Source of the DNA: Gemmatimonadota bacterium
GTDB lineage: Bacteria > Gemmatimonadota > Gemmatimonadetes > Gemmatimonadales > GWC2-71-9
Assembly (NCBI GenBank): GCA_029863245.1
Contig: JAOTVV010000006.1
Span: forward strand, 35,362 to 99,361
Length of the DNA: 64,000 bases
Reading direction: 5' to 3'
In this document: positions 18,713-56,569 of the stretch, one piece after another
Layout: each line of letters begins with the position of its first letter
How positions within the stretch are numbered: position 1 is the stretch's first letter
Made by a program: the position numbers and the translations under genes
The notes under the pieces: model-generated
The model's database searches: none
Told to the model about the DNA's origin: nothing
Seen by the model: the letters and a program-made list of their open reading frames with translations, nothing else

Positions 18713-19204
18713 GTGAGCCATCGCAGCCTCGGCGCGGCGGTTCATCGCTGGTGGCTCGCGCCTATCCTGATCGGGCTCGCGCTGGCCGCGGTAGCGGGGT
18801 GCCAGCCCCGACCCGCCGAGACGGGTGGTTTGCTGGCCGAGGTCCGCGCGCTGCTCACCCGCTCGGCTGCCGCATGGAATGCCGGCGATCTGGATGGGTT
18901 CGTCTCGGACTACTCCGTCGATTCGCTTACGGCCTTTGTATCGGGCGGCCGTCCGCAGTACGGGTACGACTGGATCAGGAACCATTACGCTCCGACCTTC
19001 GCCGTCGGAGCGCAGCGGGACTCACTCAGGTTCGAGACTATCACGGCGAGATCGCTCGGTACCGCTCATGCCCTGGCCACCGCGCGGTTCGTGCTCTTCC
19101 GCCGGGATTCGGTCACCGCAAGCGGTCCCTTCACTCTCGTGCTCACCCGCACGGACGGACGCTGGCTCATCATCCATGACCATACGTCATCTGATCCGCA
19201 GTAG
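18713..19204 (+). CDS. Lipoprotein with SnoaL/DUF4440-like (NTF2-fold) domain
   Basis: Track ORF 18557-19204. GTG 18713 gives VSHRSLGAAVHRWWLAPILIGLALAAVAGC (lipobox). The body AAWNAGDLDGFVSDY...TLVLTRTDGRWLIIHDHTS resembles DUF4440/SnoaL-like proteins. Confidence 0.65.
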   Translation: MSHRSLGAAVHRWWLAPILIGLALAAVAGCQPRPAETGGLLAEVRALLTRSAAAWNAGDLDGFVSDYSVDSLTAFVSGGRPQYGYDWIRNHYAPTFAVGAQRDSLRFETITARSLGTAHALATARFVLFRRDSVTASGPFTLVLTRTDGRWLIIHDHTSSDPQ

Positions 19205-22219: not shown

Positions 22220-22243
22220 CCACCCCCGTGGTCCGCGACTCAC

Positions 22244-23131: not shown

Positions 23132-23272
23132 GCCCTCGGCGGCGGACTCCGAACCCGCCTGCCGACCTGCTACCTTTCATCCTCGAATCACCACCGGGCA
23201 TGACCGTCGGGTTGACGGGTACCGATGGGCCCGTTCAGCGAATCACCCTTCATGGAAGGGCATGAGACATCG

Positions 23273-24358
23273 ATGGCCGACGCTCCGCGGGACCAGCGGC
23301 CGAGCATTCGACTGACGACACTGTCACACGGCGCAGGCTGAGCCTGCAAGCTCGGCTCCGCTGAGCTGGCGCAGGTCCTGCGCCACCTCCCCGCGGTCGA
23401 CGATCCGCGGGCGCTCGTGACAGCCCTGACACGCGACGATGCCGCGGTGTATCGCATATCCGACACCCGCGCCATCGTGGCGACGGTGGATTTCTTCACG
23501 CCGATCGTCGACGATCCGTACACGTTCGGGGCGATCGCGGCAACCAACGCGCTGAGCGATTTGTACGCGATGGGAGCGACGCCGCTCTTTGCGCTCAACA
23601 TCGTTGCGTGGCCTCGCGACCCTGAGGTGCTGGAACTGGTGGCCGACACCGTGCGCGGTGCCGTCGACAAGGCGCGCGAGGCAGGGATGTTCGTGCTTGG
23701 CGGCCACTCCATCGAGGACCCGGAGCCGAAGTTCGGCATGGTCGCCGTGGGGGAAGCGCACCCCGACCACCTGCTCACCAACGCAGGTGCGCAGCCCAAT
23801 GACTATCTGGTCCTCACCAAACCCCTGGGGACGGGCGTGCTCGCCACGGCACTGAAGCGCGGCACGATCACCGAAGGCGACATGACCAGGGCCATCACGG
23901 CCATGACCACCCTCAACGCAGGAGCCCTGGCGGCGGTGCGATCGGTGGGAAGCGCCGTGCACGCCGTGACGGACGTGACCGGATTCGGACTCGTGGGTCA
24001 CGCCTATAACCTGGTGGCGGCAAGCGGCGTCGGCGCCCGGCTGTTCGCCGATCGGGTGCCGGTTTTCCCCCAAGTCCCCGAGATGATTCGTACCGACGCG
24101 GTGCCGGGCGGTACTGTCCGCAATGCTGACGCGGCGAAGGCCTGGACGACATGGTCGTCGGACGTCGACCCGGTGGTCCGGACGATCCTCTGCGATGCCC
24201 AGACCTCGGGCGGACTCCTCATCGCCGTGGCCTCGGACGCCGTCGATGCCCTGGTGCAGGCCCTCAAACGGGAGAGGACCCCCTCGGCTGCCGTTGTCGG
24301 ACACGTCGTGGACCGCGGCAGCGGCACACCTATGGAGGTCGTACGGGATGGTACGTAA
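23273..24358 (+). CDS. selD: Selenide, water dikinase (selenophosphate synthetase) with in-frame UGA selenocysteine
   Basis: The track shows only 23417-24358. Reading the same frame upstream from ATG 23273 gives MADAPRDQRPSIRLTTLSHGAG-UGA-ACKLGSAELAQVL...TRDDAAVYRISD...VDFFTPIVDDPYTFGAIAATNALSDLYAMG. This is colinear with E. coli SelD (IRLTQYSHGAGCGCKISP...TRDDAAVY...[30 protein letters not shown]). The UGA at 23339-23341 sits at the Cys17 position. Confidence 0.9.
23339..23384 (+). other. UGA-Sec codon plus candidate bacterial SECIS hairpin(s)
   Basis: UGA at 23339-23341. Hairpin A is CCTGCAAGCTC/GAGCT-GGC-GCAGG (23343-23376). Alternative hairpin B is GGCGCAG-GTC-CTGCGCC (23368-23384). The apex of hairpin B, GCAGGUCCUGC, resembles the E. 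coli fdhF SECIS apex GCAGGUCUGC. Confidence 0.65.
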
Positions 24359-24956
24359 GCACAGAGACTTCGTGGCAGTTCACGCTGACGAGAGCTGCCT
24401 CGGCAACGGACGGGACGGCGCCAACCCCGGAGGGGCGGGCTCGCTGATCGAGGTCGGGACACGCGATGGTGTGGTCCGCCGTGATGTCCAGATCTCCTCG
24501 CCCGATACCACCAACAACCGCATGGCGCTCGCCGGAGGCGTCGCGACATTTGCCCTGCTGTCTCGTAAGGGAAACCGATTCCGCGTGCTCTACGTCTCTG
24601 ATTCGGAATACCTGGTCAAAGGGATGGCCGAGTGGGTGCCGGCCTGGATCGCCAATGGCTGGCGTCGCAAGGGCGGAAAGATCGAGAACCTCGAGCTGTG
24701 GCAGAGGCTCGTCCAGGCCGTCGCAGGACACGAGGTGACGTGGCACTGGGTGCGGGGCCACGCCGGGCACGTCAAGAACGAGTACGCGAACGATCTGGCG
24801 ATGTGGGCCGCCCAACAACAAACCCATTCCGCGGGCGCGGTTCCCTCCCGGTTCGAGGAATGGCTCGCCGACCATCAGGCCCGAGGGCATTTCGACGGCT
24901 ACGAGGCCGATGCAGACTTCGCCGAGCTCCAGACACGGGCGGCGGCGGCCACATGA
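24348..24956 (+). CDS. rnhA: Ribonuclease HI with a C-terminal extension
   Basis: Track ORF 24123-24956. ATG 24348 (MVRKHRDFVAVHADESCLGNG) overlaps the selD end by 11 nt. RNase H motifs are TNNRMALAG, YVSDSEYLVKGM and WHWVRGHAGHVKNEYANDLA. Confidence 0.85.
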   Translation: MVRKHRDFVAVHADESCLGNGRDGANPGGAGSLIEVGTRDGVVRRDVQISSPDTTNNRMALAGGVATFALLSRKGNRFRVLYVSDSEYLVKGMAEWVPAWIANGWRRKGGKIENLELWQRLVQAVAGHEVTWHWVRGHAGHVKNEYANDLAMWAAQQQTHSAGAVPSRFEEWLADHQARGHFDGYEADADFAELQTRAAAAT

Positions 24957-25453
24957 CGACCTCCAAGGATGGCGTCGCCGGGAACACGCATCCACTCAAT
25001 CGACTGCCCGACGGCGCGGAACCACAACTCGACCGCATTCCTTTGTTCGAGGTCTACATGCGGATGGCCGAGGAGCTGGCCAAGCGATCGACCTGCAACC
25101 GGCTCCAGGTCGGCACGGTGGTGACCGATGCTCAGCTGGAGAACGTGGTGGCGATCGGCTACAACGGGAACGCCAAGGGGCTACCCAACCGGTGTGACTC
25201 CACCGTGCCGGGGAACTGCGGATGCATCCACTCCGAGGTGAACGCGCTGGTGAAGGCACCGGGAGGAATGCGAGACAAGGTCCTCTTCGTGACCGACAGC
25301 CCCTGCGTAGCGTGCGCAAAGCTCATGATCAACGCCGGCGCCACACACGTGTTCTACCGCCGGCTGTATCGTGATCCCAGTGGGATCGAGCTGCTGGCTT
25401 CGTCGGGGGTGATACCCGTGCTATACGACCGCTGGGCAAACGCTTGGAGATAA
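24953..25453 (+). CDS. Deoxycytidylate (dCMP) deaminase, zinc-dependent
   Basis: Track ORF 24632-25453. ATG 24953 overlaps the rnhA stop (ATGA). CDA-fold motifs are CIHSEVNAL (HxE) and SPCVACAKLM (PCxxC). Confidence 0.85.
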   Translation: MTTSKDGVAGNTHPLNRLPDGAEPQLDRIPLFEVYMRMAEELAKRSTCNRLQVGTVVTDAQLENVVAIGYNGNAKGLPNRCDSTVPGNCGCIHSEVNALVKAPGGMRDKVLFVTDSPCVACAKLMINAGATHVFYRRLYRDPSGIELLASSGVIPVLYDRWANAWR

Positions 25454-25461
25454 CGCCGACC

Positions 25462-26145
25462 ATGGACGACGTCGATCGTCTCTTCCACTATCTCGTCAAC
25501 CACCTGGCGACCTCGGCACCGGAGTACCTGCGGCGTCCGTTCCAGGTGTCGGAACTGTACCAGAGGTTGATCCCCTATCGGCATCACCGAACCGCCTTGG
25601 GGTTCGGCGCAATCGAGGACTACGAGTTCGCCCTGCTCAAGTTACTGGCTGGTGAGCGAGGCTACGCTCACCTGGATCCCGACGATGCTCAACGTGCGCT
25701 GGCCTCCGAGCTCGAAGCCATCAGCCCCACCCCGGGCGCGTTTCGGGAATTCGCGGCGGCTTCGGTGACCCTCGATCAGCAGGCCGTGAAACGTCTTCTC
25801 GATCCGCAGACTGCGTACGCCCCAGCCGCAGCGGCACCCACAAACCCGTCCGCGTACGCGCCTCCGGCCATTACGAGACCGCCAGGGCCGCTTGCCGATT
25901 TCGCGGCGCATGCGACGAGCCCGATCGACATGATGCCGACCGGCCCGAACGACACCCGGCCCATCCGCTCTTCCGAACTGTGCCCCGGCTGCGGCGAGAA
26001 CCTGCCGACCGGCCGACCGGCCCACTACTGCCCATTCTGCGGACTGCGGCTCGGTGAAGTGGAGTGCCGGCAGTGCGGTGAGACACTCGACCTTGCCTGG
26101 GTCTTCTGTCTCACATGTGGCACCAAGATCGACGTCGCGCGGTGA
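25462..26145 (+). CDS. Hypothetical protein with C-terminal double zinc ribbon
   Basis: ATG 25462 lies 12 nt after GGAGA (the track start is TTG 25444). I recognise no family for the N-terminal domain. A Pro/Ala-rich linker follows. The C-terminus is CPGCGENLPTGRPAHYCPFCGLRLGEVECRQCGETLDLAWVFCLTCGTKI. Confidence 0.6.
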   Translation: MDDVDRLFHYLVNHLATSAPEYLRRPFQVSELYQRLIPYRHHRTALGFGAIEDYEFALLKLLAGERGYAHLDPDDAQRALASELEAISPTPGAFREFAAASVTLDQQAVKRLLDPQTAYAPAAAAPTNPSAYAPPAITRPPGPLADFAAHATSPIDMMPTGPNDTRPIRSSELCPGCGENLPTGRPAHYCPFCGLRLGEVECRQCGETLDLAWVFCLTCGTKIDVAR

Positions 26146-27221
26146 CCAAGCAGTTTCGCATCGCCGTCATTCCCGGAGACGGCATTGGGCCCGAGGTGAT
26201 CGACGCGGCGCTGCCCGCACTCGAGGCCGCCGCGGCCACCGAGGGCGCCAGAATGAACTGGCACCGGCTTCCCTATGGCGCCGATCATTACCTGGCAACC
26301 GGTGAGACGCTCCCGGATGCCGGGTTCGCCGAGCTGCGCGACGGGGTCGACGGGATCCTGCTCGGCGCCCTCGGTGACCCTCGCGTACCCGACAACCAGC
26401 ACGCGCGCGACATCCTGCTCGGTCTCCGATTCCGGTTGGATCTCTACGTCAACTTCCGGCCGTGCCGTCTGCTGCACCCGGCGCTCTGTCCCCTGCGTGA
26501 GCGGGATCCGCGCACTCCCGGTCGGTCGATCGACTTCGCGATCTTCCGTGAGAACACGGAAGGGGGCTATCTCGGCCAGGGGACCGCTGAGCACGTCGGC
26601 ACGGCCGAGGAGCGACAAGTCACGCACGAGATCCATACCGCACCCAAGGTGACGCGTATTCTCCGAGCTGCGTTCGAGTGGGCGAAGGCAAACGGCAGGA
26701 CCCGCATCACCATGTCGGACAAATCGAACGCCGTGCCCGCCCACCGCCTCTGGGGACGGCTGTTCGCCGAAGTGGGCGCGGCGTACCCCGACATCACGCA
26801 GGAGCATCGCTACGTCGATGCCCTGGCCATGGAGCTGGTGCGCGACCCGGAGCGGTTTCAGGTCATCGTCACCAACAACCTCTTCGGAGACATCCTGTCC
26901 GATCTCGGCGCGGAGTTGGTGGGCGGACTCGGGTTGGCAGCAAGTGCCAACATCCACCCCGGCCGTCCCGGACTGTTCGAGCCGGTGCACGGATCGGCGC
27001 CGACGATTGCCGGTCGTGGCATCGCCAACCCGTTGGCGAGCATCCTAAGCGGGAGCCTCCTGCTCGATCATCTCGGCCTGGCCGGTGCAGCCGAACGCCT
27101 CACCGCGGCGGTGCGAGCCGACCTCGATGCTGGGGTCACCACCCCCGATCTCGGGGGCACGGCCTCGACTACCGAGGTCGGCAGGTGGATCACCGCATGG
27201 CTGCAGCACTCCCGCTCCTAG
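26142..27221 (+). CDS. Isocitrate/isopropylmalate dehydrogenase-family oxidative decarboxylase (tartrate / 3-isopropylmalate dehydrogenase-like)
   Basis: GTG 26142 overlaps the upstream stop (GTGA). Motifs are FRIAVIPGDGIGPEV, NLFGDILSDLGAELVGGLGLAASAN and EPVHGSAP. Confidence 0.85.
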   Translation: MTKQFRIAVIPGDGIGPEVIDAALPALEAAAATEGARMNWHRLPYGADHYLATGETLPDAGFAELRDGVDGILLGALGDPRVPDNQHARDILLGLRFRLDLYVNFRPCRLLHPALCPLRERDPRTPGRSIDFAIFRENTEGGYLGQGTAEHVGTAEERQVTHEIHTAPKVTRILRAAFEWAKANGRTRITMSDKSNAVPAHRLWGRLFAEVGAAYPDITQEHRYVDALAMELVRDPERFQVIVTNNLFGDILSDLGAELVGGLGLAASANIHPGRPGLFEPVHGSAPTIAGRGIANPLASILSGSLLLDHLGLAGAAERLTAAVRADLDAGVTTPDLGGTASTTEVGRWITAWLQHSRS

Positions 27222-27304
27222 GGCACCCCCAGCCCGCCACGGCGCGCCTCATTGTGGACCGGTACGACCGGCGCCAACTTCATAGGGAGAACCCATAGGG
27301 GCCC

Positions 27305-28135
27305 ATGACCGATCTCGTACCCCAGACGTCCCGGATCGACCGCCCGGCGTTGGAGCGCATCATCAGGCGGGCTGCCGAGCTGCAGGCAAGCGCGCGGGAC
27401 ATTGGTGACGGACTCACCGAGCAGGATCTCCTGGACCTCGGCCAGGAGGTCGGGATCCCCGGCGGCTATTTGCAGCAGGCGCTGTTGGAAGAGCAGACCC
27501 GGACGGTAGCACTCACCGAACCGGGGGTCGGAGCGTGGCTCGCCGGCCCGCGGCATATCCTCACCCAGCGATCGATCCCTGGTGAGGCCGATCGCCTCCA
27601 GGCGGCCCTCAACCACTGGATGACGGCCGGGGAACTGTTGACCGTCAAGCGGAGATTCCCCGACCGGACCTCGTGGGAAGCTCGGCAAGACGTCTTTTCC
27701 TCGATCAAGCGAGAACTGAAAGTGGGTGGACGACCGTACCGACTCGCCCGCGCCAAGGAGATCGTCGGCCGAGTTACCCACCTGGAAGATGGCCGGGCGC
27801 ACGTCCAGCTGCTTGCCGACCTCTCCAACACACGGCGCGCGCATCTGGCCGGCGGCGCGACGCTCGGCGGCCTGGGTGCCGTGGCAACCGCTCTTGGCTT
27901 GACCATCGGCGTGGCCCTGCCCGTCGCGTTGATTCCTCTCGGCTTAGGCGCCCTATTGGGCACGATGGTGGCGCGGCGGCGGTACAGCCAGGTGGAGCGG
28001 GTGCACGTGGCCCTCGAGCAGGTGCTGGACCGACTGGAGCACGAAGAGGTCAAGCTCCCAGGCGGGCTGGATGGCCAACGAACGGGCGCGCTCGAACGGA
28101 TCGCCGGCGAGATCCGGCGAAGCCTCGGCATGTGA
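27305..28135 (+). CDS. Hypothetical membrane protein (soluble N-terminal domain, two C-terminal TM helices)
   Basis: ORF with a plausible ATG. The hydrophobic stretch GGATLGGLGAVATALGLTIGVALPVALIPLGLGALLGTMVA lies near the C-terminus. I recognise no family. Confidence 0.55.
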   Translation: MTDLVPQTSRIDRPALERIIRRAAELQASARDIGDGLTEQDLLDLGQEVGIPGGYLQQALLEEQTRTVALTEPGVGAWLAGPRHILTQRSIPGEADRLQAALNHWMTAGELLTVKRRFPDRTSWEARQDVFSSIKRELKVGGRPYRLARAKEIVGRVTHLEDGRAHVQLLADLSNTRRAHLAGGATLGGLGAVATALGLTIGVALPVALIPLGLGALLGTMVARRRYSQVERVHVALEQVLDRLEHEEVKLPGGLDGQRTGALERIAGEIRRSLGM

Positions 28136-28151
28136 CACAGGCACGAGCGAT

Positions 28152-28649
28152 ATGAGACGCCGAGGCATGGCACCCCGGACGAGCCTCGTCGCGAGCGGCG
28201 CCCTCGTGACGATCCTCGTTCTGTCCTGTGGAGGCGGGCTCCGACCGTATCTCACCCCCCTCCCCGACGCGGTTGTCGACACGCTCGCCGCGCTACCGGT
28301 AGATGTCATTCGCGAAATCGCCACACTCGTCACGGCTGAGGGTCTCGTCATCAGAATCTCGAGCCCAGAGGAGGGATACCTCGAGACCGAGTGGTACGAC
28401 GTCGGCACGGCGGTCCCCGGGGACACGCCTTTCACCGATCCGCGTCGCAGCACCCTGCTACGGTTCTTCGCCGACCCGGAAGCTGACGAGGAAACCCGTC
28501 TGTCGGCAGAGGCCGTCGTGCGCCGTACCCTCGACCCATCGGTCCCGTCTCGACAGGGTGAAATGATGGCCCCGCCGGGACACCCGGGAAACGAGATGCT
28601 CCGTCGAGTACTCGCAGCGCTCGACAGCCGATTCGGACCGGCGCGATGA
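28152..28649 (+). CDS. Hypothetical lipoprotein
   Basis: Track ORF 28071-28649. ATG 28152 gives MRRRGMAPRTSLVASGALVTILVLSCGGG (lipobox LSC). The stop overlaps the next start (ATGA at 28646). Confidence 0.55.
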   Translation: MRRRGMAPRTSLVASGALVTILVLSCGGGLRPYLTPLPDAVVDTLAALPVDVIREIATLVTAEGLVIRISSPEEGYLETEWYDVGTAVPGDTPFTDPRRSTLLRFFADPEADEETRLSAEAVVRRTLDPSVPSRQGEMMAPPGHPGNEMLRRVLAALDSRFGPAR

Positions 28650-29884
28650 CTTTCGGCCGGCTCGGCTCGGGCTCGCCTACGCCACTCGACGGCCGGGAAT
28701 GGGACGTTGCTGTCGTGGGGGCAGGACCAGCCGGTACAACGGCCGCTCACCTCCTCGCCAAGGAAGGGCACACGGTGCTGCTGCTCGACCGGGCACCGTT
28801 TCCGCGAGACAAGGCATGCGGAGATGCTCTGATCCCCGACACCCTCAACAGCCTCAGGCGATTGGGCCTCTACGAGGAGGTCCGGCAGGTCGCCCAACGA
28901 CTCGGCACGCTCTCAGCATATAGTCCCGCCGGCATTCGGGTGGACATCCCCGGAGAGTTCCTGACGGTGCGCCGGTACACGTTCGATGCCCTGTTGCTCC
29001 AGGGCGCGGTCGACAACGGAGCCACCTTCCACGTGGCACCGGTAGTCAGCATCGACTCGCGAGCGGACCGCGTGCGTCTCACGACGCGAGACGGCCTCAC
29101 CGTTACCGCCAAGGTGGGTATTGTCGCCACCGGGGCAGATACCTCTCTCTTTCGAGGGGGCTCGACGCCCCGACCGTCTGCACCGAGTGGCGTGGCGCTG
29201 CGATGTTACGTGCGCTCGCCCGTGTCGATCGATCGCCTGATCATTTCGTACGATCGGTCGATCGTGCCCGGGTATGCATGGATCTTTCCGCTCGGTGACG
29301 GCCTGTACAACGTGGGGTGTGGCATCTTCTATCGGCACGAGCGAAAGCGGCGGATCAATCTCCGGAAGACGTTCGCCACCTTCGTCGAGACCATTCCGCA
29401 GGCGCGTGATCTATGGGAGACGCAGTGCTCTGCGACGTCGCTGGTCGGCGCAAGGCTTCGGTGCGGCCTCGATGCCTCCATGGCATACGACGGCGCTCGT
29501 GTCATTGGCATCGGTGAGGTAATCGCTACCACGTTTCCCTTCACCGGTGAAGGCATCGGCAAGGCGATGGAGACGGGAGAGATCGCAGCAGCTTCGGTAG
29601 CAGAGTCGTTGCGGCAGGGTACGACCGACGCGCTGGCCAGGTTCCCCACCATCCTCGAGCGGCGTGTCGCGCCTCGCTACAGAGGCTACCGGCGAGCGGA
29701 GAACTGGGTGGCCCAGCATTGGCTAGCGGATCTCGTGGCCAGGCGCGTGCAGCGCAGTCCGTCGCTCGGCAAGGTCGCAGCGGGCATCATGAGCGAGACG
29801 GAAGATCCGCGGGCCCTGTTCTCATGGAAGGCCATACTGCCGTCCCTGAGGACATGGCGGTCGGCCCGCCGCTCTGGTACATGA
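28646..29884 (+). CDS. Geranylgeranyl-reductase-family FAD-dependent oxidoreductase
   Basis: Dinucleotide-binding motif WDVAVVGAGPAGTTAAHLLAKEGHTVLLLDR, followed by PRDKACGDALIP. Length and layout fit the geranylgeranyl reductase / FixC-like flavoprotein family. Confidence 0.75.
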   Translation: MTFGRLGSGSPTPLDGREWDVAVVGAGPAGTTAAHLLAKEGHTVLLLDRAPFPRDKACGDALIPDTLNSLRRLGLYEEVRQVAQRLGTLSAYSPAGIRVDIPGEFLTVRRYTFDALLLQGAVDNGATFHVAPVVSIDSRADRVRLTTRDGLTVTAKVGIVATGADTSLFRGGSTPRPSAPSGVALRCYVRSPVSIDRLIISYDRSIVPGYAWIFPLGDGLYNVGCGIFYRHERKRRINLRKTFATFVETIPQARDLWETQCSATSLVGARLRCGLDASMAYDGARVIGIGEVIATTFPFTGEGIGKAMETGEIAAASVAESLRQGTTDALARFPTILERRVAPRYRGYRRAENWVAQHWLADLVARRVQRSPSLGKVAAGIMSETEDPRALFSWKAILPSLRTWRSARRSGT

Positions 29885-30951
29885 CCGTATCGATGGCGGC
29901 GCCCGAGCACAGCGGGGCGTTCTGCGATGCGCTGCTGCCCAAGGTATCCCGCACCTTCGCCATTTGCATTCGCCTGCTCCCCCCGGGACTCGACCATTCG
30001 GTTCTCGTGGCCTACCTCCTCTGCCGGATCGCGGACACCATCGAAGACAGCACCGCGCTCGATCAGACGTCCAAGGAGCGGCTGCTGCTCGCGTTCGGTC
30101 AGGCTGTCGGGGATCCGAGAGATCCCGCGGAGTCGGTTCAGGAGGCCTTTCCGAATCCGACGAGCGACGAAGAGCGCCTCGCGCACCACGCCAACCTGGT
30201 GCTACAGGAGTTCCGCCAGCTATCGGAGACACAACAGGTGGCCATTCGGCCCTGGGTGCAGGAGATGAGTCGAGGTATGGCGGAGTTCACCCGACGCAAG
30301 GGCGCCGCGCGCGCCGCGCAGCTTGAGGCCCTCGGCACGGTCGCCGAACTGGACCGGTACTGCTACATCGTTGCCGGTACCGTCGGTCACCTCCTCACCG
30401 AGCTGTTCTATCTCCACTCCGGCACGTGGAGCCGTGCACGATACGATCGCCTCACGGCTCGCGCGACGAGCTTCGGACTGGGACTCCAACTGACCAACAT
30501 CATCAAAGACGTGGCCGACGACCGCCGGCGCGGATGGAGCTTCGTGCCCCAGGAGCTGTGCCAGCTGGCGGGCATCACGCCGGACGAGCTGCACGACGGA
30601 CGCCACACGGCGGCGGCGCTCCGGGTGATGCACCTGCTGATTGCCAAGGCCAAATCCCACCTGCTCGATGCACTGGAGTACTCGACGCTGCTTTCGCACC
30701 GGCAGTACGGGATCCGGCTCTTTTGCCTCACCTCTCTGTACTTCGCGGTCCAGACACTGCACCTCGCCGAGCGAGACGACCGGCTCTTGGACCCCGATCA
30801 CAAGGTGAAGATCACCCGTCCCGAGGTGCTGCGGACGATCGCGATGTCTCGGATCGTGGCCCCGAGCAACGCGGCAGTCCGTTGGTACTTCCGTCGCCTC
30901 GCGGGAGCCGCTTGGTCTCGAGAGCCGATCCCGGCCGTGCCAGCTACCTGA
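29881..30951 (+). CDS. Squalene/phytoene synthase-family head-to-head prenyl diphosphate condensing enzyme
   Basis: Track ORF 29719-30951. ATG 29881 overlaps the upstream stop (ATGA). Motif LLPKVSRTFAICIRLLP. Both Asp-rich motifs are present: LLCRIADTIEDS and NIIKDVADDRRRG. Confidence 0.8.
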   Translation: MTVSMAAPEHSGAFCDALLPKVSRTFAICIRLLPPGLDHSVLVAYLLCRIADTIEDSTALDQTSKERLLLAFGQAVGDPRDPAESVQEAFPNPTSDEERLAHHANLVLQEFRQLSETQQVAIRPWVQEMSRGMAEFTRRKGAARAAQLEALGTVAELDRYCYIVAGTVGHLLTELFYLHSGTWSRARYDRLTARATSFGLGLQLTNIIKDVADDRRRGWSFVPQELCQLAGITPDELHDGRHTAAALRVMHLLIAKAKSHLLDALEYSTLLSHRQYGIRLFCLTSLYFAVQTLHLAERDDRLLDPDHKVKITRPEVLRTIAMSRIVAPSNAAVRWYFRRLAGAAWSREPIPAVPAT

Positions 30952-30976
30952 TTCGAGCCCGAGACTGACAGGACCC

Positions 30977-32617
30977 GTGCCCTCCACCCCGGTCGCTCCC
31001 CCTGCGTACCGCGGAACGTTCCGAACCGACCTCCCGGCACGCGCGGCCTACAGCGAAGGCGCCGGTCCGTACCGCATCGTTCCGGCTGGGGTGGCCATCC
31101 CCGCGGACCTCGACGATGTGGTCCGCATCGTAGCTGCCGCGAACAGCGACGGGTGGTCGTTGATCCCGCGGGGCGCCGGAAGCGGCATTCCCGGCCACAA
31201 CGTGGGTGAGGGGATCGTGGTCGACCTTTGCCGGCTGACGGATCCCCTCACCGTTGCCGACGGGTTGGCAGTCGTGGGTGCCGCCGTCACCTGGCAGGCA
31301 CTCGATCGATTGGCGAGCGACCACGGTCTCCGCCTCCCTCCGAACCCGTCGAGCGGCGCCTTCTGCACCGTGGGTGGCATGGTGGCCACCAACGCCGCCG
31401 GCGCTCGATCGGTTCGGTACGGTTCCATTCGACCGTGGGTCGCCGGGCTGGAGGTCGTGACCGGGACGGGGGACGTGATCCACCTGGTCCGCGGGCACCA
31501 CGAGAGCCGGCCTCGACAGGATGTCCAACCGGTGGTGGCTCGCTTCGCCGATCGGGTTCACCCTCGCATCACGCAGGCGGCGGACACCATTGCGCGTCGC
31601 TTCCCCCGGACGCGAAAGAACTCCGCGGGCTATGCGCTCGATGCCTATCTCGCATCCGGTGATCTCCTGGATCTCCTGGTCGGGTCGGAGGGAACGCTCG
31701 GCATCGTCACGCAGGTTCACCTCCGACTCGCGCCCGTGCCGGCTGCGGTCGGTGGCCTCCTCATCGGAGTCGACCGGATCGAGCGGCTGGGAGAGCTTGT
31801 TGGCGGGCTCCTCCTTCTCGAGCCCGCGGCCCTCGAACTGCTCGACACCACCTTCCTCGCCCTCGCTGGCTTTCAGGGCGCCGATGCCCTACCGGGAATG
31901 GACGCAGTGCTCCTGGTCGACTTCGAGACGGAATCGCTTGCCGAGCTCGAAGCGGTTCTGGATCGGGCGGCGACCCTGGCGGGGCCCCGTGCCCTCATCC
32001 AGCAAGCCCTGACCAAAGACGAGCACGACCGCCTCTGGCAGATCCGACATGCAGCGAGCCCAGCCTTGGCCCGGTTACCCGACACCACCCGCTCGCTGCA
32101 GATCGTCGAGGATGGGTGCGTGCCGGTCGAGCACTTGGGCCGCTACCTCTCCGGCGTTCGCGCCATCGCCGACGCGGTGTCGATCGACGTGGTGGCGTTT
32201 GGGCACGCCGGCGACGGACACGTCCACGTGAACGCGTTGGTCGATACGACCGACACTTCGTTGGCCGCGCGGCTTCGCGAACTGCTCGAAAGGGTGACGA
32301 ATCTGGTGCTGGACCTCGGAGGAACGCCAAGCGGTGAGCACGGGGACGGTCGCCTTCGCGCTGGCGCCGTGTCCCGCATGTATGGAGACGAGGTGCTCGA
32401 GTTGTTTCGGCTGGTCAAGGAGACGTTCGACCCTCGGGGTGTGCTCAACCCGGGGGTGATCCTCGGCGGACCCGACGACCCGGTGGACCGACTCAAGGTC
32501 GGCCCTCAGGCGGTCCCGATCCCCGAGGCGGTTGCGTCCGCGCTTCGCGGCCTCGAGAGACGCGCGGAGTGGGGGCAGTCCCGCTTGGAGTTGCTTGGCG
32601 AGTCCAATCCGCGATAA
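30977..32617 (+). CDS. FAD-linked oxidase (PCMH-type FAD_binding_4; GlcD / D-lactate dehydrogenase / alkyl-DHAP-synthase superfamily)
   Basis: GTG start 26 nt after the upstream stop. FAD-binding segment [22 protein letters not shown], plus C-terminal [10 protein letters not shown] and GEHGDGRLR motifs. Confidence 0.8.
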
Positions 32618-32670
32618 TTCGGGGAGGTCGGTGGCGTCGGGAAACACCCACCTGTTCCGCTCGAGAGGCC

Positions 32671-33465
32671 ATGAGACAGTATCTCCATCTCCTCCAGCAC
32701 ATCCTCGACCACGGCCATCCGAAAGCCGACCGGACGGGAACCGGGACGCTGAGCATCTTTGGCCACCAGATGCGCTTCGATCTCGGCGAGGGGTTCCCGC
32801 TGGTCACGACGAAGAAGGTGTACCTCAAGGCGATCATTCACGAGCTGCTTTGGTTCACGCGGGGCGACACCAACGTCGGGTACCTTCGGCAGCACGGGGT
32901 CAGCATCTGGGACGAGTGGGCGGACGAGCACGGGGACCTGGGACCGATCTATGGAGCGCAGTGGCGCTCGTGGCCGGCTCCCGATGGTCGTACGATCGAC
33001 CAGCTGGCCGGCGTGGTCGAGCAGATCCGCCGCGATCCGGATTCGCGCCGCCATGTCGTCAGCGCCTGGAATCCTGCCGACCTGCCCAGGATGGCACTCC
33101 CTCCGTGCCACATCCTGTTCCAGTTCTACGTGGCAGACGGGCGGCTCTCGTGCCAGCTCTACCAGCGGAGTGCGGACGTGTTTCTGGGGGTCCCCTTCAA
33201 CATCGCCTCCTACGCGCTCCTCACGCTGATGGTCGCCCAGAGCACGGGGCTTGAGCCCGGTGAGTTCATCCACACGTTTGGAGACGCCCACCTGTACACC
33301 AACCACTTGGAGCAGGCCCGACTCCAGATAGGCCGCGATCCCCGATCGCTCCCGACGATGCGGCTCGACCCGGCGGTCAGATCGATCTTCGATTTCTCGT
33401 TCGAGAACTTCTCGCTCCAAGGCTACGATCCACATCCCCGGATCGCGGCACCCATCGCGGTGTGA
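32671..33465 (+). CDS. thyA: Thymidylate synthase (ThyA type)
   Basis: Track ORF 32569-33465. ATG 32671 gives [36 protein letters not shown]. Active site [14 protein letters not shown]. Confidence 0.95.
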
Positions 33466-33995
33466 TCGTCTCACTCATCGCCGCGATGGCGGAGAACCGG
33501 GTGATCGGATCCCGGGGAAGCCTGCCCTGGCACCTGCCCAAGGACATGCGTCGGTTCAAGACCCTGACGACCGACCACGCGGTGGTGATGGGACGGAAGA
33601 CATTCGAGACCCTGACCCAACCGCTGCCGCAGCGCCGCAACATCGTGATCACCTCCAACCGTGAGTACCGCGCCGCCGGCGCCGAAGTCGTCCATGGTCT
33701 CGACGAGGCCCTGGCGCTGGTTGGGCACGAGGAGGAGGTGTTCGTGGCGGGCGGTGGGCAGGTCTACCGACTCGCCCTGCCGCACGCCTCCAGGATCTAC
33801 CTCACCGTCGTGCACGCGACCTATGACGGCGACGCCTTCTTCCCTGAATTCCCCGAGGGCGACTGGCTGCTCGTCAGCGATCACACCTTCCCCACCGACG
33901 AGCGGCACGCGGTGCCGTTCAGCTTCCGCGAGTACCATCGACCCACTCCCTCCAGAGGCGTTCCGGTCTCCAAAAAAAAGCTCGACGGGTCCTGA
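33462..33995 (+). CDS. folA: Dihydrofolate reductase
   Basis: GTG 33462 overlaps the thyA stop (GTGA). Motif [49 protein letters not shown] ~19-aa C-terminal tail contains the A8 run (VSKKKLDGS). Confidence 0.9.
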
Positions 33996-34020
33996 TCGAC
34001 GGCTTCGCGAAGCGTCGAGC
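33972..34020 (-). terminator. Candidate intrinsic terminator that reads correctly only on the minus strand
   Basis: On the plus strand: A8 (33972-33979), then GCTCGACG (33980-33987) ... CGTCGAGC (34013-34020). On the minus strand this is an 8-bp GC stem with a structured 25-nt loop, followed directly by U8. Confidence 0.3.
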
Positions 34021-34066
34021 AGACCTGCGCGGAAGTGTCTCGGCAAAAATGACGTCGAAAAAACTA

Positions 34067-34095
34067 TTGCGTATCCGTTCATCATTCTTTATCGT
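34067..34095 (+). promoter_or_regulatory. Candidate sigma70-type promoter of the ATP-grasp/GNAT/KamA operon
   Basis: -35 TTGCGT (34067-34072), a 17-nt spacer, then -10 TATCGT (34090-34095). It sits in a locally AT-rich gap. RBS TGGAG lies 5 nt before ATG 34128. Confidence 0.3.
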
Positions 34096-34107
34096 GTTGC
34101 GCAACAC
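34094..34107. promoter_or_regulatory. Perfect 14-bp palindrome GTGTTGCGCAACAC, candidate operator
   Basis: Exact inverted repeat that overlaps the end of the putative -10 and the expected transcription start, 21 nt upstream of ATG 34128. Confidence 0.35.
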
Positions 34108-34127
34108 ACACTCGTTCTTGGAGTTCG

Positions 34128-35210
34128 ATGCGCATCGCACTCGCGTTCAACCAACGTCCGGAAGACGTCGTCGCCGATCACGGCGGCGACCGCCGGACCA
34201 CCTTCGAACCGCTCACCGACGAGTACGTCGAGTGGGATGACGCCGAGACGATCGCGGCGGTGCGCGACGCTCTCCAGGTCTTCGGGGACGTCGTGCCCCT
34301 CGAGGCCGTGGGCGACTTCCCGTGCAAACTCCGCGACGCCCGGGTGGACTTCGTCTTCAACATGGCTGAGGGCCACAGTGGTCCGAACCGGGAGGCACAT
34401 GTCCCGGCGATGGCCGAGTTCTTCGGCATTCCCTATCTGGGGAGTGATCCGCTCACGCTCGCGATCGCGCTCCACAAGATCCGGGCAAAGGAGGTCTTTC
34501 GGCAGCGCGGGGTGCCGACGCCGCCGTTCACCTGGATCGATTCCGAGGCTGATCTGTCGGTGCTGCGGAACGGGCATCCCTACCCGGCGTTCCTCAAGCC
34601 GGCCTGGGAGGGCTCCTCTAAAGGAATAGCGGAGGCCAACTACGCACGGACCCCGGCGGAGGCGGTCGAGCGCGCGCGGCATCTGCTGGAGGCCTATCGC
34701 CAGCCCGTTCTCGTGGAAGCGTTCCTCCCAGGTGAGGAGTTCACCGTCGCCGTCATGGGGAACGGGCTCGACGCGCGGGCACTGCCGCTCATCCGCTACC
34801 GGTTCGACGGCCTGCCGCCCGGCGCACTCCCCATTATGGGCTACGAGGCCAAGTGGAAGTGGGACGTGCCCGACACGCCGCTCGAGGTGCTCGAATGCCC
34901 CGCGGCGGTCGATGAGGAAGCCGCCGAGGCGGTGCGTCACACCGCCCTCGCCGCCTACCACGCCCTGGGCTGCCGCGACTGGGCTCGCGTCGATGTCCGA
35001 CTGGATGCCAGCGGTGCTCCACACGTCCTCGAGGTCAATCCCCTGCCCGGCATCATCCCCGACCCGGCAGCGAACAGCTGCTTCCCGCGCGCGGCGTGGA
35101 CGGCCGGGATGACCTACGACGACCTGATCCAGTCGGCCGTGCGGATCGCCTGGCGGCGGGTCACCGGTGGGGAACTCGCATCAGAACCCGTTTCAGGAGT
35201 CACGCACTGA
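34128..35210 (+). CDS. ATP-grasp ligase, D-alanine--D-alanine ligase-like (paralogue 1)
   Basis: Motifs MRIALAFNQ...VDFVFNMAEG...AEFFGIPYLGSDPLTLAIALHKIRAKEVFRQRGVPTPPF...FLKPAWEGSSKGI...EEFTVAVMGN...WARVDVRLDASGAPHVLEVNPLPG. This is the Ddl-type ATP-grasp layout. Confidence 0.8.
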   Translation: MRIALAFNQRPEDVVADHGGDRRTTFEPLTDEYVEWDDAETIAAVRDALQVFGDVVPLEAVGDFPCKLRDARVDFVFNMAEGHSGPNREAHVPAMAEFFGIPYLGSDPLTLAIALHKIRAKEVFRQRGVPTPPFTWIDSEADLSVLRNGHPYPAFLKPAWEGSSKGIAEANYARTPAEAVERARHLLEAYRQPVLVEAFLPGEEFTVAVMGNGLDARALPLIRYRFDGLPPGALPIMGYEAKWKWDVPDTPLEVLECPAAVDEEAAEAVRHTALAAYHALGCRDWARVDVRLDASGAPHVLEVNPLPGIIPDPAANSCFPRAAWTAGMTYDDLIQSAVRIAWRRVTGGELASEPVSGVTH

Positions 35211-36217
35211 ACATCGCGGCGATCTACGACGGCGGCGCAGAGAGCTGGAGTCCGGAGGACATCCGGGCCGTGCTCGCATCCGTCGCCACCGTGAGCCGCG
35301 TGCTAGAGACGGCGGGTCACGAGGTGACGCGCGTCTCCGTGCAGCCCGACCTCGCGTGGTTCGGCTCCGTGCGGGAGGCCGACCTGGTATTCAACCTGTG
35401 CGAGGGGGTCGGAGGCGTCAGTCGCCTGGAGGTCAACGTCGCCTCGATGATGGAACTGGCGGGGATTCCCTTCACCGGATGCTCGGCCTGGACGATGGCA
35501 GTGTGTCACCGCAAGCCGCTCCTCAACGCGTTCCTGGCGTCGCGGGGAGTGCCGGTTCCGCGCTGGCACGTCCCGGAAGGGGCGGCGGCCGTGCCCGACG
35601 ACTTCCCGCTCCCGGCGATCGTGAAGCCGGCCGCCGAAGACGCGAGCATCGGGATCGAGCAGGGATCGGTGGTCACCAGCCCCTCCGCCCTCCGCGATCG
35701 GGTGGCGCTGGTGCGGGAGCGGCATGGGACGGCCATCGTGCAGCAGTACATCGCCGGCCGGGAGCTGGCGGTGGGCTTCGTCGGTGACGGCATCCTCCCA
35801 CTGTCGGAAATCGACTTCACCCACCTGCCGGCCGGCGCTTGGCCGATCGTCTCGTTCGCCGCGAAGTGGCTCGAGGCGAGCCCGGAGTTCGCCGGGACCC
35901 AGCCGGTCTGTCCTGCGGACGTCGACGCCGACCTGGCCAACCGTATCGTGCAGATGGCGGCCTTGGCATGGCAGGCCGTCGAAGGTCGGGGATACGGGCG
36001 AGTCGATCTTCGGGTGGATGCGGATGGGAATCCCTGGGTCCTGGAGGTCAACCCCAATCCAGACCTCTCGGCCGACGCGGGGTTGGCGAACATGGCCCGA
36101 GCGCGTGGCTGGAGTTACGACCGGCTGGTGCTCCAGATCGTCGAGGCGGCTCGCAGTGGGCGGAGACAAAGCCCGGCCGTGCCGATCACTTCGACGCGTG
36201 AGGTCTCGCTCGCATGA
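35207..36217 (+). CDS. ATP-grasp ligase, D-alanine--D-alanine ligase-like (paralogue 2); start codon unresolved (CTG?)
   Basis: Track ORF 35096-36217. Homology to paralogue 1 begins at LNIAAIYDG (compare MRIALAFNQ). Between 35096 and that point there is no ATG, GTG or TTG in frame. CTG 35207 lies 7 nt after AGGAG and overlaps the upstream stop (CTGA). Motifs: ADLVFNLCEG, MELAGIPFTGCS, IVKPAAEDASIGI, GRVDLRVDADGNPWVLEVNPNPD. Confidence 0.75.
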   Translation: MNIAAIYDGGAESWSPEDIRAVLASVATVSRVLETAGHEVTRVSVQPDLAWFGSVREADLVFNLCEGVGGVSRLEVNVASMMELAGIPFTGCSAWTMAVCHRKPLLNAFLASRGVPVPRWHVPEGAAAVPDDFPLPAIVKPAAEDASIGIEQGSVVTSPSALRDRVALVRERHGTAIVQQYIAGRELAVGFVGDGILPLSEIDFTHLPAGAWPIVSFAAKWLEASPEFAGTQPVCPADVDADLANRIVQMAALAWQAVEGRGYGRVDLRVDADGNPWVLEVNPNPDLSADAGLANMARARGWSYDRLVLQIVEAARSGRRQSPAVPITSTREVSLA

Positions 36218-36735
36218 GCACCGCCGAGACGACCGTGACGATCGGCCCACTGCGGGCTGAAGACCGGGAGCGCGTCCGCGCGATGGTCGAGGCCACGCGT
36301 GTCTTCCGCTCCGACGAGATCACCGTGGCCCTCGAAGTGTTCGACGACCACATCACCCGTCCCGGCACCGACTACCACGCGATCGGCGCCTTCGACGATG
36401 ACGGACTGGTGGGCTTCACCCTATACGGTCCGACCCCTTGCACCAGCGCCACGTGGGATCTCTACTGGATCGTCGTCGATCCGGCGGCGCACCGACACGG
36501 GGTCGGTCGCAAGCTCATGGATCACACCGAACGGAACATCCGGATGCGGAAGGGGCAGCTGATCGTGGTTGAGACGTCGTCCCGCGACGACTATGGGCCG
36601 ACCCGGGGGTTCTACGATTCGATCGGGTACACCCGTGCTGCGCACATCGCGCAGTACTACGGTCCTCAGGACGATCTGATCGTCTACACCAAGCATCTCG
36701 CTCCTCCCGCAAAAGAGATGGCACACCATGGCTGA
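36214..36735 (+). CDS. GNAT-family N-acetyltransferase
   Basis: ATG 36214 overlaps the upstream stop (ATGA). The acetyl-CoA binding motif A is WIVVDPAAHRHGVGRKLMDH. Length is 173 aa. Confidence 0.85.
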   Translation: MSTAETTVTIGPLRAEDRERVRAMVEATRVFRSDEITVALEVFDDHITRPGTDYHAIGAFDDDGLVGFTLYGPTPCTSATWDLYWIVVDPAAHRHGVGRKLMDHTERNIRMRKGQLIVVETSSRDDYGPTRGFYDSIGYTRAAHIAQYYGPQDDLIVYTKHLAPPAKEMAHHG

Positions 36736-37921
36736 ATGGCAGAAGCTCCTCCACGAGCGCGGTGTCCGCACGCTCCAGCAGCTCGTCGAACGGTTCGGGC
36801 CGGAGCACTTCCCAGACCTCGAGCGCCTTCAGCAGGCGGTGGACAACTTCGAGTTCCGGATCTCCCCCGCCATGGTGGACCTGATCCAGAAGCCCAATGA
36901 TCCGATCTGGCGGCAGTACGTCCCCGACCTGCAGGAACTCGAAGTCGTGGATGGCGTACTGGACAGCCTCAACGAGGAAGGCGACAGCCCGGTGCCCAAC
37001 ATCACGCACCGGTATCCGGATCGGGCGTTGTTCCTCGTGAGCCCGGTGTGCGCGTCGTACTGCCGGTTCTGCACCCGACGCCGCAAGGTGGGGGATCCCG
37101 AAAAGATCTCCATGGCCCAGCTCGAATCGAGCTTCCGGTACCTTCAGGAGCATGAAGAGATCCGCGACGTGATCCTCTCGGGTGGGGATCCTCTGCTTTT
37201 GTCGGATCGGCGACTCGATGCGATCCTCGGCCGGCTGCGCAAGATCCAGCACATCGAGGTCATCCGGATCGGTAGCCGCATCCCGTGCCATCTCCCGGAG
37301 CGGATCACCCCGGAGCTCTGCGCAGTGCTGAAGAAGCACCACCCGTTGTACATCAACACCCACTTCAACCACCCGGCCGAGTTGACGCCCGCTGCGGTCA
37401 AGGGACTGGGCATGCTGGCGGACGCCGGAATTCCGCTAGGGTGCCAGACGGTACTCCTCAGCGGCGTGAACGACGATGTCGACGTCATGAAGGAGCTCAT
37501 GCAGAGGCTCCTCGTCGCGCGCGTGCGCCCGTACTACATCTTCATGTGCGATAACGTGGCCGGCGTGGAGCACTTCAAGGCCACGGTCGAAAAGGGCCTC
37601 CAGATAGTGAAGGGCCTCCGTGGCTGGACGAGCGGGCTCGCCGTTCCCCACTTCGTGATCGATGCCCCGGGTGGTGGCGGCAAGATTCCCCTGCTCCCGG
37701 AGTACGTCGAGTCGATCACGGACGACGAGATCGTGCTCAAGAACTATCGCGGCCAGCGCTACGTGTACCCGCAGGCCCGGTCGGAGGTGTTGGTCGCGGC
37801 CGGCGCAGCCGAGCCGGAGTACGAGCTGATGTCGCTGTTTGGCGACGAGCCATCGCCGGGATCCCCGCGGCCGCGTTCCCGCAACGGCACCCGCAAGGGG
37901 GCAAAGAAGAAACGCACCTAG
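36728..37921 (+). CDS. KamA-family radical-SAM / PLP amino acid 2,3-aminomutase (lysine 2,3-aminomutase-like)
   Basis: Overlaps the GNAT gene by 8 nt. Motif NITHRYPDRALFLVSPVCASYCRFCTRRRK carries the CxxxCxxC cluster. FVIDAPGGGGKIPL carries the PLP-lysine motif. The C-terminal tail is basic: SRNGTRKGAKKKRT. Confidence 0.9.
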   Translation: MAEWQKLLHERGVRTLQQLVERFGPEHFPDLERLQQAVDNFEFRISPAMVDLIQKPNDPIWRQYVPDLQELEVVDGVLDSLNEEGDSPVPNITHRYPDRALFLVSPVCASYCRFCTRRRKVGDPEKISMAQLESSFRYLQEHEEIRDVILSGGDPLLLSDRRLDAILGRLRKIQHIEVIRIGSRIPCHLPERITPELCAVLKKHHPLYINTHFNHPAELTPAAVKGLGMLADAGIPLGCQTVLLSGVNDDVDVMKELMQRLLVARVRPYYIFMCDNVAGVEHFKATVEKGLQIVKGLRGWTSGLAVPHFVIDAPGGGGKIPLLPEYVESITDDEIVLKNYRGQRYVYPQARSEVLVAAGAAEPEYELMSLFGDEPSPGSPRPRSRNGTRKGAKKKRT

Positions 37922-51359: not shown

Positions 51360-51385
51360 GGGGTGCGTGTCTCCACTCCGCCTCC

Positions 51386-56529: not shown

Positions 56530-56569
56530 GTCATGCGCCTGTGGTTGAAGAACATGCTACGTCCCAATC

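Follow-up and report, generated by a model that had tools for sequence, protein, structure and literature searches.

A predicted squalene synthase of the Sqs/FDFT1 type in a conserved Gemmatimonadota gene array, with a near-constant lipoprotein partner and variable flavoenzyme neighbors

Head-to-head condensation of prenyl diphosphates by enzymes of the SQS_PSY fold is known from single-enzyme squalene synthases of the Sqs/FDFT1 type (human 1EZF, fungal 7WGH, and the bacterial Sqs enzymes encoded next to shc), from the HpnCDE route, and from CrtM/CrtB. In the rat and human squalene synthases, the first step uses the tyrosine of a YCxxVAG motif, and the NADPH-dependent second step uses the phenylalanine of FCAIP together with the VKI(R/T)K loop. 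For a squalene-synthase-like enzyme acting ahead of partial product saturation, the closest published parallel is Botryococcus braunii race L, in which lycopaoctaene synthase (LOS) makes C40 lycopaoctaene from geranylgeranyl diphosphate (GGPP) (PMC4823828). Here, we describe a 64,000-nucleotide stretch of a Gemmatimonadota genome (contig JAOTVV010000006.1; the window), in which five adjacent genes code for a membrane protein (p276), a lipoprotein (lipo160), a geranylgeranyl-reductase-family flavoprotein (GGR), a squalene synthase (SQS), and an FAD-linked oxidase. An earlier note on this DNA had proposed that the five genes form one pathway, with the synthase making a C30 or C40 backbone, GGR saturating it, the oxidase modifying or ether-linking it, and the two envelope proteins handling the product. 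We find it likely that the window instead carries a canonical SQS within a conserved gene array, and that the five genes do not make up a dedicated pathway to a saturated or ether isoprenoid lipid; the special pathway lacks support because the GGR and oxidase genes come and go independently among relatives.

The synthase has the sequence features of an ordinary, one-enzyme squalene synthase of the Sqs/FDFT1 type. It matches SQS_PSY (PF00494; E = 2e-53) over aa 20-314, corresponding to profile positions 2-262 of 263, and among the NCBIfam models it scores highest with TIGR01559 (squal_synth; 144.5 bits), where aa 13-340 align to model positions 4-312 of 337. The matches to HpnD (78 bits, cut-off 279), HpnC (58 bits, cut-off 250), and CrtB (55-66 bits, cut-offs 480-550) are all partial. 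The Protein Data Bank (PDB) gives full-length matches to eukaryotic squalene synthases (E = 7e-25 to 1e-19), whereas CrtB (9e-12) and CrtM (1e-10 to 1e-7) match in one segment only, and the full-length match to the Sqs/FDFT1 enzymes is colinear, at ~25-40% identity to characterized or context-validated members. The earlier note had pointed to both Asp-rich motifs, and these are located at aa 52-56 (DTIED; nt 30034-30048) and aa 210-214 (DVADD; nt 30508-30522). Alignment to the fungal SQS 7wgh keeps SRTFA, DTIED, and the second Asp-rich block, and pairs YCYIVAG with YCYYVAG, LFCLT with NFCAI, and VKITR with IKITK; the window enzyme shares with the Sqs/FDFT1 type the Asp-rich motifs, YCxxVAG, FC, and VKIT(R/K). 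Among 35 SQS homologues down to 40% identity, the positions kept in this alignment are invariant or nearly so, and residues D52, E55, D56, D210, and D214 are invariant, as are Y160, F281, C282, K310, and R313. The enzyme would join two molecules of farnesyl diphosphate (FPP) head to head to give presqualene diphosphate, and would convert this to squalene by NADPH-dependent reductive rearrangement.

Relatives of the synthase are found together with enzymes that use squalene. Many homologues at ~40% identity (50%-clustered representatives) are fusions with squalene epoxidase, FPP synthase (FPPS), HMG-CoA reductase, or 3beta-HSD, and 16 proteobacterial and myxobacterial genomes have a squalene-hopene cyclase (SHC) gene at the SQS locus, mostly immediately downstream; several of these SHC-bearing loci add an HpnG-like phosphorylase, with examples in Dyella, Pseudomonas, and myxobacteria. 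The fusion architectures are squalene epoxidase-SQS, squalene epoxidase-(partial cyclase-like)-SQS, FPPS-SQS-3beta-HSD, and HMG-CoA reductase-FPPS-SQS (1453 aa), and the fusion entries P0147, P0155, P0172, P0180, P0191, and P0249 are multi-step sterol or isoprenoid proteins. The window SQS lies in the same clade as the SHC-adjacent and squalene-epoxidase-fused homologues. Its named close homologues all come from Gemmatimonadota/Gemmatimonadales metagenome-assembled genomes (MAGs), and in a neighbor-joining (NJ) tree it falls within a Gemmatimonadota clade beside Fibrobacterota and Calditrichota sequences, a placement that fits vertical descent within the Fibrobacteres-Chlorobi-Bacteroidetes (FCB) group. 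With respect to SQS, HpnC, HpnD, CrtB, and CrtM, among which the earlier note had left the enzyme to be placed, it is nearest to SQS by profile and by PDB match, and it groups with ordinary SQS. Unlike the shc-linked Sqs enzymes, the window SQS is coupled translationally to a lipoprotein and, in some lineages, to GGR, with no cyclase, epoxidase, or hpn gene nearby, and unlike the HpnCDE and CrtM/CrtB systems, no HpnE/CrtN-type amine oxidase gene lies near it.

A synthase of this family could make a different head-to-head product, although we consider this very unlikely; GGPP might be turned into a lycopaoctaene-like C40 hydrocarbon, or the product might be a pigment precursor, dehydrosqualene or phytoene. 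The TIGR01559 score lies under the curated SQS equivalog cut-off of 286.75 bits, so we infer squalene as the product rather than reading it from the match, and chain length cannot be read from the sequence; an adjoining GGR would also fit the lycopadiene-type saturation suggested for Botryococcus. However, the residues of the NADPH step, FC and VKITR, are conserved, which disfavors a CrtM/CrtB-type product; the CrtB and CrtM models score much lower; and relatives within this family are linked to SHC or to squalene epoxidase. The Botryococcus lycopaoctaene synthase is a eukaryotic, GGPP-using, specialized SQS paralogue (PMC4823828), whereas the window locus gives no indication of C40 specificity.

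The gene arrangement is as the earlier note described it. All five open reading frames were found on the + strand within 27305-32617 (Table 1), and a third-position G+C (GC3) of ~0.8 across them supports the reading frames; the G+C content of the window is 62-68%. ATGA overlaps join lipo160 to GGR at 28646-28649, read as gcgcgATGActt, and GGR to SQS at 29881-29884, read as tacATGAccg. The SQS stop at 30951 is separated by 25 nt (30952-30976) from the oxidase GTG at 30977, with AGGA 5 nt upstream of the GTG. The 16-nt gap (28136-28151) after the p276 stop at 28135 holds if the lipoprotein begins at the alternative ATG at 28152, which would give a protein of 165 aa; public gene calls place the start at 28167.

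Table 1. Genes of the SQS locus and the two genes that follow it, with window coordinates
Feature	Coordinates	Strand	Basis or remark
p276, 276-aa membrane protein	27305..28135	+	Hydropathy; conserved in Gemmatimonadota loci
lipo160, 160-aa lipoprotein	28167..28649	+	Lipobox, AlphaFold2, 21/22 loci
Geranylgeranyl-reductase-family flavoprotein (GGR), 412 aa	28646..29884	+	TIGR02032, motifs
Sqs-type (FDFT1-like) squalene synthase (SQS), 356 aa	29881..30951	+	PF00494, TIGR01559, PDB
FAD-linked oxidase, GlcD / D-lactate dehydrogenase / YdiJ type, 546 aa	30977..32617	+	PF01565 + PF02913
thyA	32671-33465	+	Continues co-directional array
folA	33462-33995	+	Continues co-directional array

To this arrangement we compared SQS loci from a collection of 185,579 species genomes, in which one scan yielded 80 loci; these were then searched by tblastn with the window proteins, and neighbors were counted at the SQS locus itself, and only at loci with enough flanking sequence. 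The lipoprotein gene is upstream of SQS at 21 of 22 readable loci, GGR is directly upstream at 7 of 23, and the oxidase directly downstream at 13 of 25. For the 21 other species-level genomes with both flanks readable, GGR and the oxidase are both present in three, GGR only in four, the oxidase only in eight, and neither in six; the three joint occurrences compare with ~3.7 expected if the two genes were independent. The sister loci L014 and L017 differ by GGR alone, and in a relative whose SQS is 70% identical the order is p276, DUF2231, lipoprotein, SQS, and thyA, with both GGR and the oxidase absent and a 54-aa remnant of a thiolase gene present.

These counts bear directly on the proposal that the five genes act as one pathway. 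Co-orientation, ATGA overlaps, and short gaps favor it, and the complete five-gene arrangement recurs in two relatives (L008 and L009), with GGR, SQS, and the oxidase present in a third (L032). Nonetheless, we regard it as very improbable. The GGR, SQS, and oxidase genes occur together in only 3 of the 21 other genomes, with GGR and oxidase behaving independently, and the relative with 70% SQS identity lacks both; thyA-folA follows the oxidase at a spacing comparable to those between the five genes; p276 is parted from the others by unrelated genes in relatives; the SQS gene occurs in 'Planctomycetota' MAGs without its partners; and the oxidase, as described below, has the motifs of 2-hydroxyacid dehydrogenases, its similarity to alkyl-dihydroxyacetonephosphate (alkyl-DHAP) synthase being confined to the FAD-binding domain. 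The earlier note had itself named the combination of a synthase grouping with ordinary SQS and neighbors that vary between genomes as evidence against its model, and both are seen here; the proposed partly saturated or otherwise unusual isoprenoid lipid from the synthase, GGR, and oxidase set finds no backing in an ordinary SQS whose neighbors vary independently.

The five-gene boundary is also arbitrary. Only 53 nt separate the oxidase stop from thyA, and between 27200 and 34200 we found nothing resembling a promoter or a terminator. The five genes are enclosed in a longer same-strand run (~18825-37921, roughly 19 genes), and the unit is not bounded. Upstream of the five genes, the run contains genes for amidohydrolases, selD, RNase H, dCMP deaminase, a zinc-ribbon protein, and IsoDH, and downstream it contains thyA, folA, two Ddl-like genes, a GNAT gene, and a lysine-aminomutase-like gene. 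This co-directional run is syntenic across Gemmatimonadota and runs straight into thyA-folA, which directly follows SQS in relatives that do not have the oxidase. The array has been inherited vertically with a stable backbone, and genes have been lost from it or inserted into it at several junctions. With variable members in parentheses, the order for the phylum would be dCMP deaminase, zinc-ribbon protein, (IsoDH), (thiolase), (Band 7), p276, (3HCDH), (DUF2231), lipoprotein, (GGR), SQS, (FAD oxidase), thyA, and folA.

Individual relatives, read from public gene calls, agree with these counts and illustrate the variation. The order is p276, DUF2231, lipoprotein, GGR, SQS, and thyA in CP070716.1; Band 7, p276, 3HCDH, DUF2231, lipoprotein, SQS, and thyA in Bacterium HR33; and Band 7, a p276-like gene, a 112-aa gene, GGR, SQS, and thyA in CP070666.1. 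The locus of cultured Gemmatimonas, like L080, has p276, SQS, and the oxidase. Many relatives (L003, L009, L011, L012, L023, L031, and L049) have a thiolase gene between the IsoDH/zinc-ribbon gene and p276, and some of these add Band 7 and 3-hydroxyacyl-CoA dehydrogenase genes. At one locus (L094, 4830-4994), only a 54-aa fragment of the thiolase is kept, which suggests that gene decay is ongoing at the array junctions.

A Gemmatimonadota-type SQS also occurs in MAGs labeled 'Planctomycetota' (L015, L016, L019, L022, L025-L027, L035, L038, and L039), where it is 59-63% identical to the window SQS, nests in the Gemmatimonadota clade, and has none of the four neighbors. This reflects either horizontal transfer or systematic mis-binning. 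The SQS neighbors at these loci code for 751-aa and 290-aa proteins without Pfam matches and for an FHA protein. The gene that precedes SQS in these MAGs might have been a diverged form of p276 or of the lipoprotein, but we rejected this, the hhalign probabilities being 0.07% and 1.1%.

The most robust association at the locus is with lipo160, which is the only near-constant partner of SQS. The protein has no Pfam or NCBIfam match; its lipobox reads LSCGG, with Cys21 nearly invariant among 27 homologues, and the family motifs are RPYLTPLP, EGYLETxW, and DPS..R..E....GH. Only 29 homologues were found among 5.8 billion proteins, the named ones all from Gemmatimonadota, and wherever contigs could be matched, they share their contig with SQS. 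The lipo160 stop overlaps the GGR start, or the SQS start where GGR is absent. An AlphaFold2 model (pLDDT 85, pTM 0.78) has as its best Foldseek match in the PDB the N-terminal domain of BamC (E = 7e-5, target TM 0.54-0.58), with weaker matches to KA1/AMPK and Bet v 1/SRPBCC folds, and EGYLETxW lies in a predicted beta-sheet region. We interpret lipo160 as a phylum-restricted family with a predicted BamC-like helix-grip fold. BamC (NlpB) is a lipoprotein with two helix-grip domains where lipo160 would have one, and with no sequence-level or Pfam match the likeness would be at the level of the fold only. The lipoprotein and SQS would form a stable, translationally coupled core, and lipoprotein, GGR where present, and SQS would be read as one translationally coupled stretch within a long transcript or array, co-transcription being our inference. 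Of the two upstream envelope proteins that the earlier note tied to the product, the lipoprotein is consistently linked to SQS, whereas p276 is often separated from it.

The flavoprotein encoded between lipo160 and SQS is, by its profile match and motifs, a true GGR-family member, as the earlier note had it, and as such a predicted FAD-dependent reductase of isoprenoid C=C bonds. It passes the cut-off of the GGR superfamily model (TIGR02032, 164.8 bits versus 158.8), and the GxGxxG N-terminus recognized in the earlier note is present as GAGPAG (aa 25-30), followed by DKACGD (aa 55-60) and YAWIFP...GCG (aa 210-226). In alignments with 3oz2 and 4opl, both of them archaeal GGRs, the segments GAGPAG, DKACGD, and YAWIFPLGDGLYNVGCG are matched and the Cys of DKACGD falls on the catalytic Cys; the YxWxFP...GxG motif (YxWxFPx7-8GxG) is present. 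GxGxxG, the DKxCGD Cys, and YxWxFP...GxG are common to the described GGRs, including archaeal digeranylgeranylglycerophospholipid (DGGGPL) reductase (3OZ2, 3ATR, and 4OPC), ChlP/BchP, and mycobacterial MenJ, but the window GGR reaches the equivalog cut-off of none of the named subfamilies (MenJ 148/700 bits, BchP-ChlP 90/343, archaeal DGGGPL reductase 93/580). Its substrate could be squalene or a quinone or polyprenol chain, both of which are possible. Adjacency of GGR to SQS is limited to Gemmatimonadota in this sample; GGR homologues at ~50% identity in Acidobacteriota and on unlabeled contigs have unrelated neighbors and no adjoining SQS.

Other flavoprotein classes were considered for this gene and rejected. 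The top PDB match is the flavin-dependent halogenase CmlS, but the halogenase motif WxWxIP is absent, GYAWIFP standing in place of the CmlS GWVWMIP (W to Y, I to F). FixC (7koe), representing the FixC/electron-transfer flavoprotein (ETF)-quinone oxidoreductases, matches at only E = 1e-5 in the Rossmann N-terminus, to which the match to aromatic hydroxylases is also confined. Squalene epoxidase fails similarly: the SE and FAD_binding_3 matches do not extend beyond the Rossmann part, whereas the cut-off of the GGR model is passed.

The oxidase contains FAD_binding_4 (PF01565) and FAD-oxidase_C (PF02913), which confirms the family call of the earlier note. It is under the equivalog cut-offs for GlcD (TIGR00387, 226 versus 568 bits) and YdiJ (201 versus 1350 bits), the 201-bit match being colinear with the N-terminal half of YdiJ over aa 10-496. 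The PDB matches spanning both domains include glycolate oxidase (9qgz, 8e-45) and the mitochondrial D-lactate dehydrogenase LDHD (8jdc, 7e-42), and HAGDGHVH (aa 410-417) and GEHG (aa 453-456) align with AHAGDGNLH and GEHG in 9qgz, and with GHVGDGNFH and GEHG in 8jdc. The His...His and Glu motifs form the metal/substrate site in the structures of LDHD and D-2-hydroxyglutarate dehydrogenase (D2HGDH), and E. coli YdiJ is itself a D-2-hydroxyglutarate dehydrogenase. Both domains, HxGDGxxH, and GEHG are common to the window oxidase, GlcD, LDHD, D-2-hydroxyglutarate dehydrogenase, and the N-terminal half of E. coli YdiJ; the window protein differs in having no YdiJ Fe-S half, in carrying a ~50-aa C-terminal extension, and in lying under all equivalog cut-offs. 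Judging from these motifs, it is most likely a D-2-hydroxyacid dehydrogenase.

The earlier note had listed alkyl-DHAP synthase within this oxidase superfamily, but the ether-lipid idea finds no support in the comparison. AGPS (2uuu and 4bby) covers the generic FAD-binding domain only (~aa 30-169, E = 3e-14 to 2e-12), a match much weaker than those to GlcD and LDHD, whose motifs the oxidase keeps over both domains. The link of the oxidase to isoprenoids is one of position only, and half of the relatives have no oxidase there. Within the array, the oxidase would be a 2-hydroxyacid-dehydrogenase-like enzyme unrelated to the lipid.

Several observations weigh against our reading of a canonical SQS in a shared array. 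Falling short of the SQS equivalog cut-off makes another product possible by sequence, and the oxidase gene is directly 3' of SQS in half of the genomes, including the deep-branching L040 and L080. The 4-nt overlaps between lipoprotein and GGR and between GGR and SQS recur in relatives, and in an NJ tree the SQS-adjacent Gemmatimonadota GGRs stand apart from the non-adjacent homologues and form subclades that mirror the SQS tree, which suggests an old GGR-SQS pairing followed by repeated GGR loss. Such a pairing would be ancient, and may well be functional. Both the SQS and GGR trees are NJ trees without support values, and the taxon labels of MAGs may be wrong.

One alternative is a module of three genes, with GGR partly hydrogenating squalene to di- or tetrahydrosqualene, the lipoprotein binding or carrying the product, and lineages lacking GGR using squalene itself. 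Di- and tetrahydrosqualene have been reported for haloarchaea. We consider such a module unlikely. In its favor, stop/start overlaps flank GGR on both sides, here and in relatives; the lipoprotein is present at 21 of 22 loci, and no member of its family was found apart from this SQS; proteins that bind hydrophobic ligands typically have the helix-grip fold predicted for it, and the weaker Bet v 1/SRPBCC matches point the same way; the SQS-adjacent GGR copies group together; and no cyclase gene lies within ~8 kb of SQS in any Gemmatimonadota locus. Set against these, GGR is missing in two thirds of relatives, and its homologues at ~50% identity work without an SQS neighbor. The best match of the lipoprotein, BamC, acts in protein assembly and is not known to bind a lipid, and the TM scores are modest. 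Moreover, the region is strongly syntenic, and adjacency alone is therefore weak evidence.

Alternatively, GGR could be a MenJ-like or polyprenol-type reductase acting on menaquinone or polyprenyl chains, with its adjacency to SQS reflecting shared ancestry of the array, a role that is unlikely in our estimate and would be compatible with the canonical-SQS reading. MenJ is the best equivalog-level NCBIfam match (148 bits, full length), but its score is far under the 700-bit cut-off; some close GGR homologues are named menaquinone-9 beta-reductase by JGI, but source names of this kind are automatic. One GGR homologue follows a Glycos_transf_4 (polyprenyl-phosphate transferase) cluster, and the Acidobacteriota homologues have no SQS neighbor, whereas in Gemmatimonadota the translational coupling of GGR to SQS has been kept in the phylum. 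Returning to the canonical SQS within its array, we picture GGR as an old, dispensable accessory between the lipoprotein and SQS that probably saturates isoprenoid double bonds.

The membrane protein p276 is predicted to begin with a soluble domain of ~180 aa, followed by a hydrophobic hairpin of 45 aa (aa 181-225) and a C-terminal tail of 50 aa; the hairpin has conserved prolines in the motif LPVAxIP. No Pfam, NCBIfam, or PDB-profile match was found for it, and comparison of 13 p276 homologues with Pfam gave only sub-threshold matches (Sensor, 0.0097; Oleosin, 0.003 in one member). Monotopic, lipid-droplet-like insertion of aa 181-226 (window 27845-27982) is conceivable but unsupported, and the single-sequence AlphaFold2 model is unusable (pLDDT 41.5). 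In relatives, p276 is often directly after a Band_7 gene, and in many it is parted from the lipoprotein by 3HCDH and/or DUF2231 genes.

We note several other features of the window. The dCMP deaminase gene (24953-25453) and thyA/folA (32671-33995), all dTMP-synthesis genes, lie to either side of SQS and its neighbors across the phylum, always on the strand that carries them, and the squalene genes are therefore inside what is apparently a nucleotide-metabolism array. Further downstream on the + strand are two Ddl-like ATP-grasp genes (34128-35210 and ~35270-36217) and a GNAT acetyltransferase gene (36214-36735) overlapping one for a lysine-2,3-aminomutase-like radical SAM enzyme (36728-37921). 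The latter pair resembles ablB/ablA of the N-epsilon-acetyl-beta-lysine osmolyte pathway, here with two ligases, and the 34128-37921 set is kept in several relatives. Three very large multi-PAS sensor proteins are encoded close together on the - strand at 47820-61330: two hybrid histidine kinases of 1179 and 1163 aa, the 1163-aa protein with two receiver domains and an Hpt domain, and a 1315-aa multi-PAS histidine kinase of the HisKA_3 type. No Rfam families were found in the window, and repeats in it are at chance level only, with no sign of a mobile element.

A Pfam search of the large and likely-coding open reading frames of the window found no SHC/OSC, crtI/crtN, hpn, polyprenyl synthase, UbiA, or other isoprenoid, cyclase, or desaturase gene, and the absence of a cyclase within ~8 kb of SQS extends to every Gemmatimonadota locus examined. 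The same holds within ~8 kb at Fibrobacterota/Calditrichota loci (L041-L054, L061-L063, and L084), where SQS sits among the housekeeping genes lspA, rluD-like, dnaA, and rsmB-like. A literature search combining Gemmatimonadetes, Gemmatimonadota, or Gemmatimonas with squalene, hopanoid, or cyclase returned nothing specific, and a preprint on hopanoid distribution does not mention the phylum. We speculate that squalene or hydrosqualenes could be an end-product membrane lipid, not a cyclase substrate, in Gemmatimonadota, and perhaps in other FCB bacteria whose SQS likewise has no cyclase nearby, with an ancestral, translationally coupled lipoprotein-GGR-SQS unit whose phylum-specific lipoprotein carries the product into the envelope; we hold this to be quite unlikely, but if true, end-product squalene would be a bacterial counterpart of the haloarchaeal squalene/hydrosqualene pool.

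For the most part, these findings are routine annotation: a conserved housekeeping array contains a predicted SQS, a reductase of the GGR family, and a flavoenzyme resembling 2-hydroxyacid dehydrogenases. We advise against treating the five genes as a candidate pathway to a new isoprenoid lipid, whether saturated or ether-linked. The remaining interest rests mainly on the conserved lipoprotein-SQS pair and on what becomes of squalene in this phylum, a widespread and little-studied one of soils and sediments that appears to keep a bona fide SQS without a cyclase nearby. The coupling of the lipoprotein to SQS offers a testable lead on how triterpenoids may be handled in a diderm envelope.

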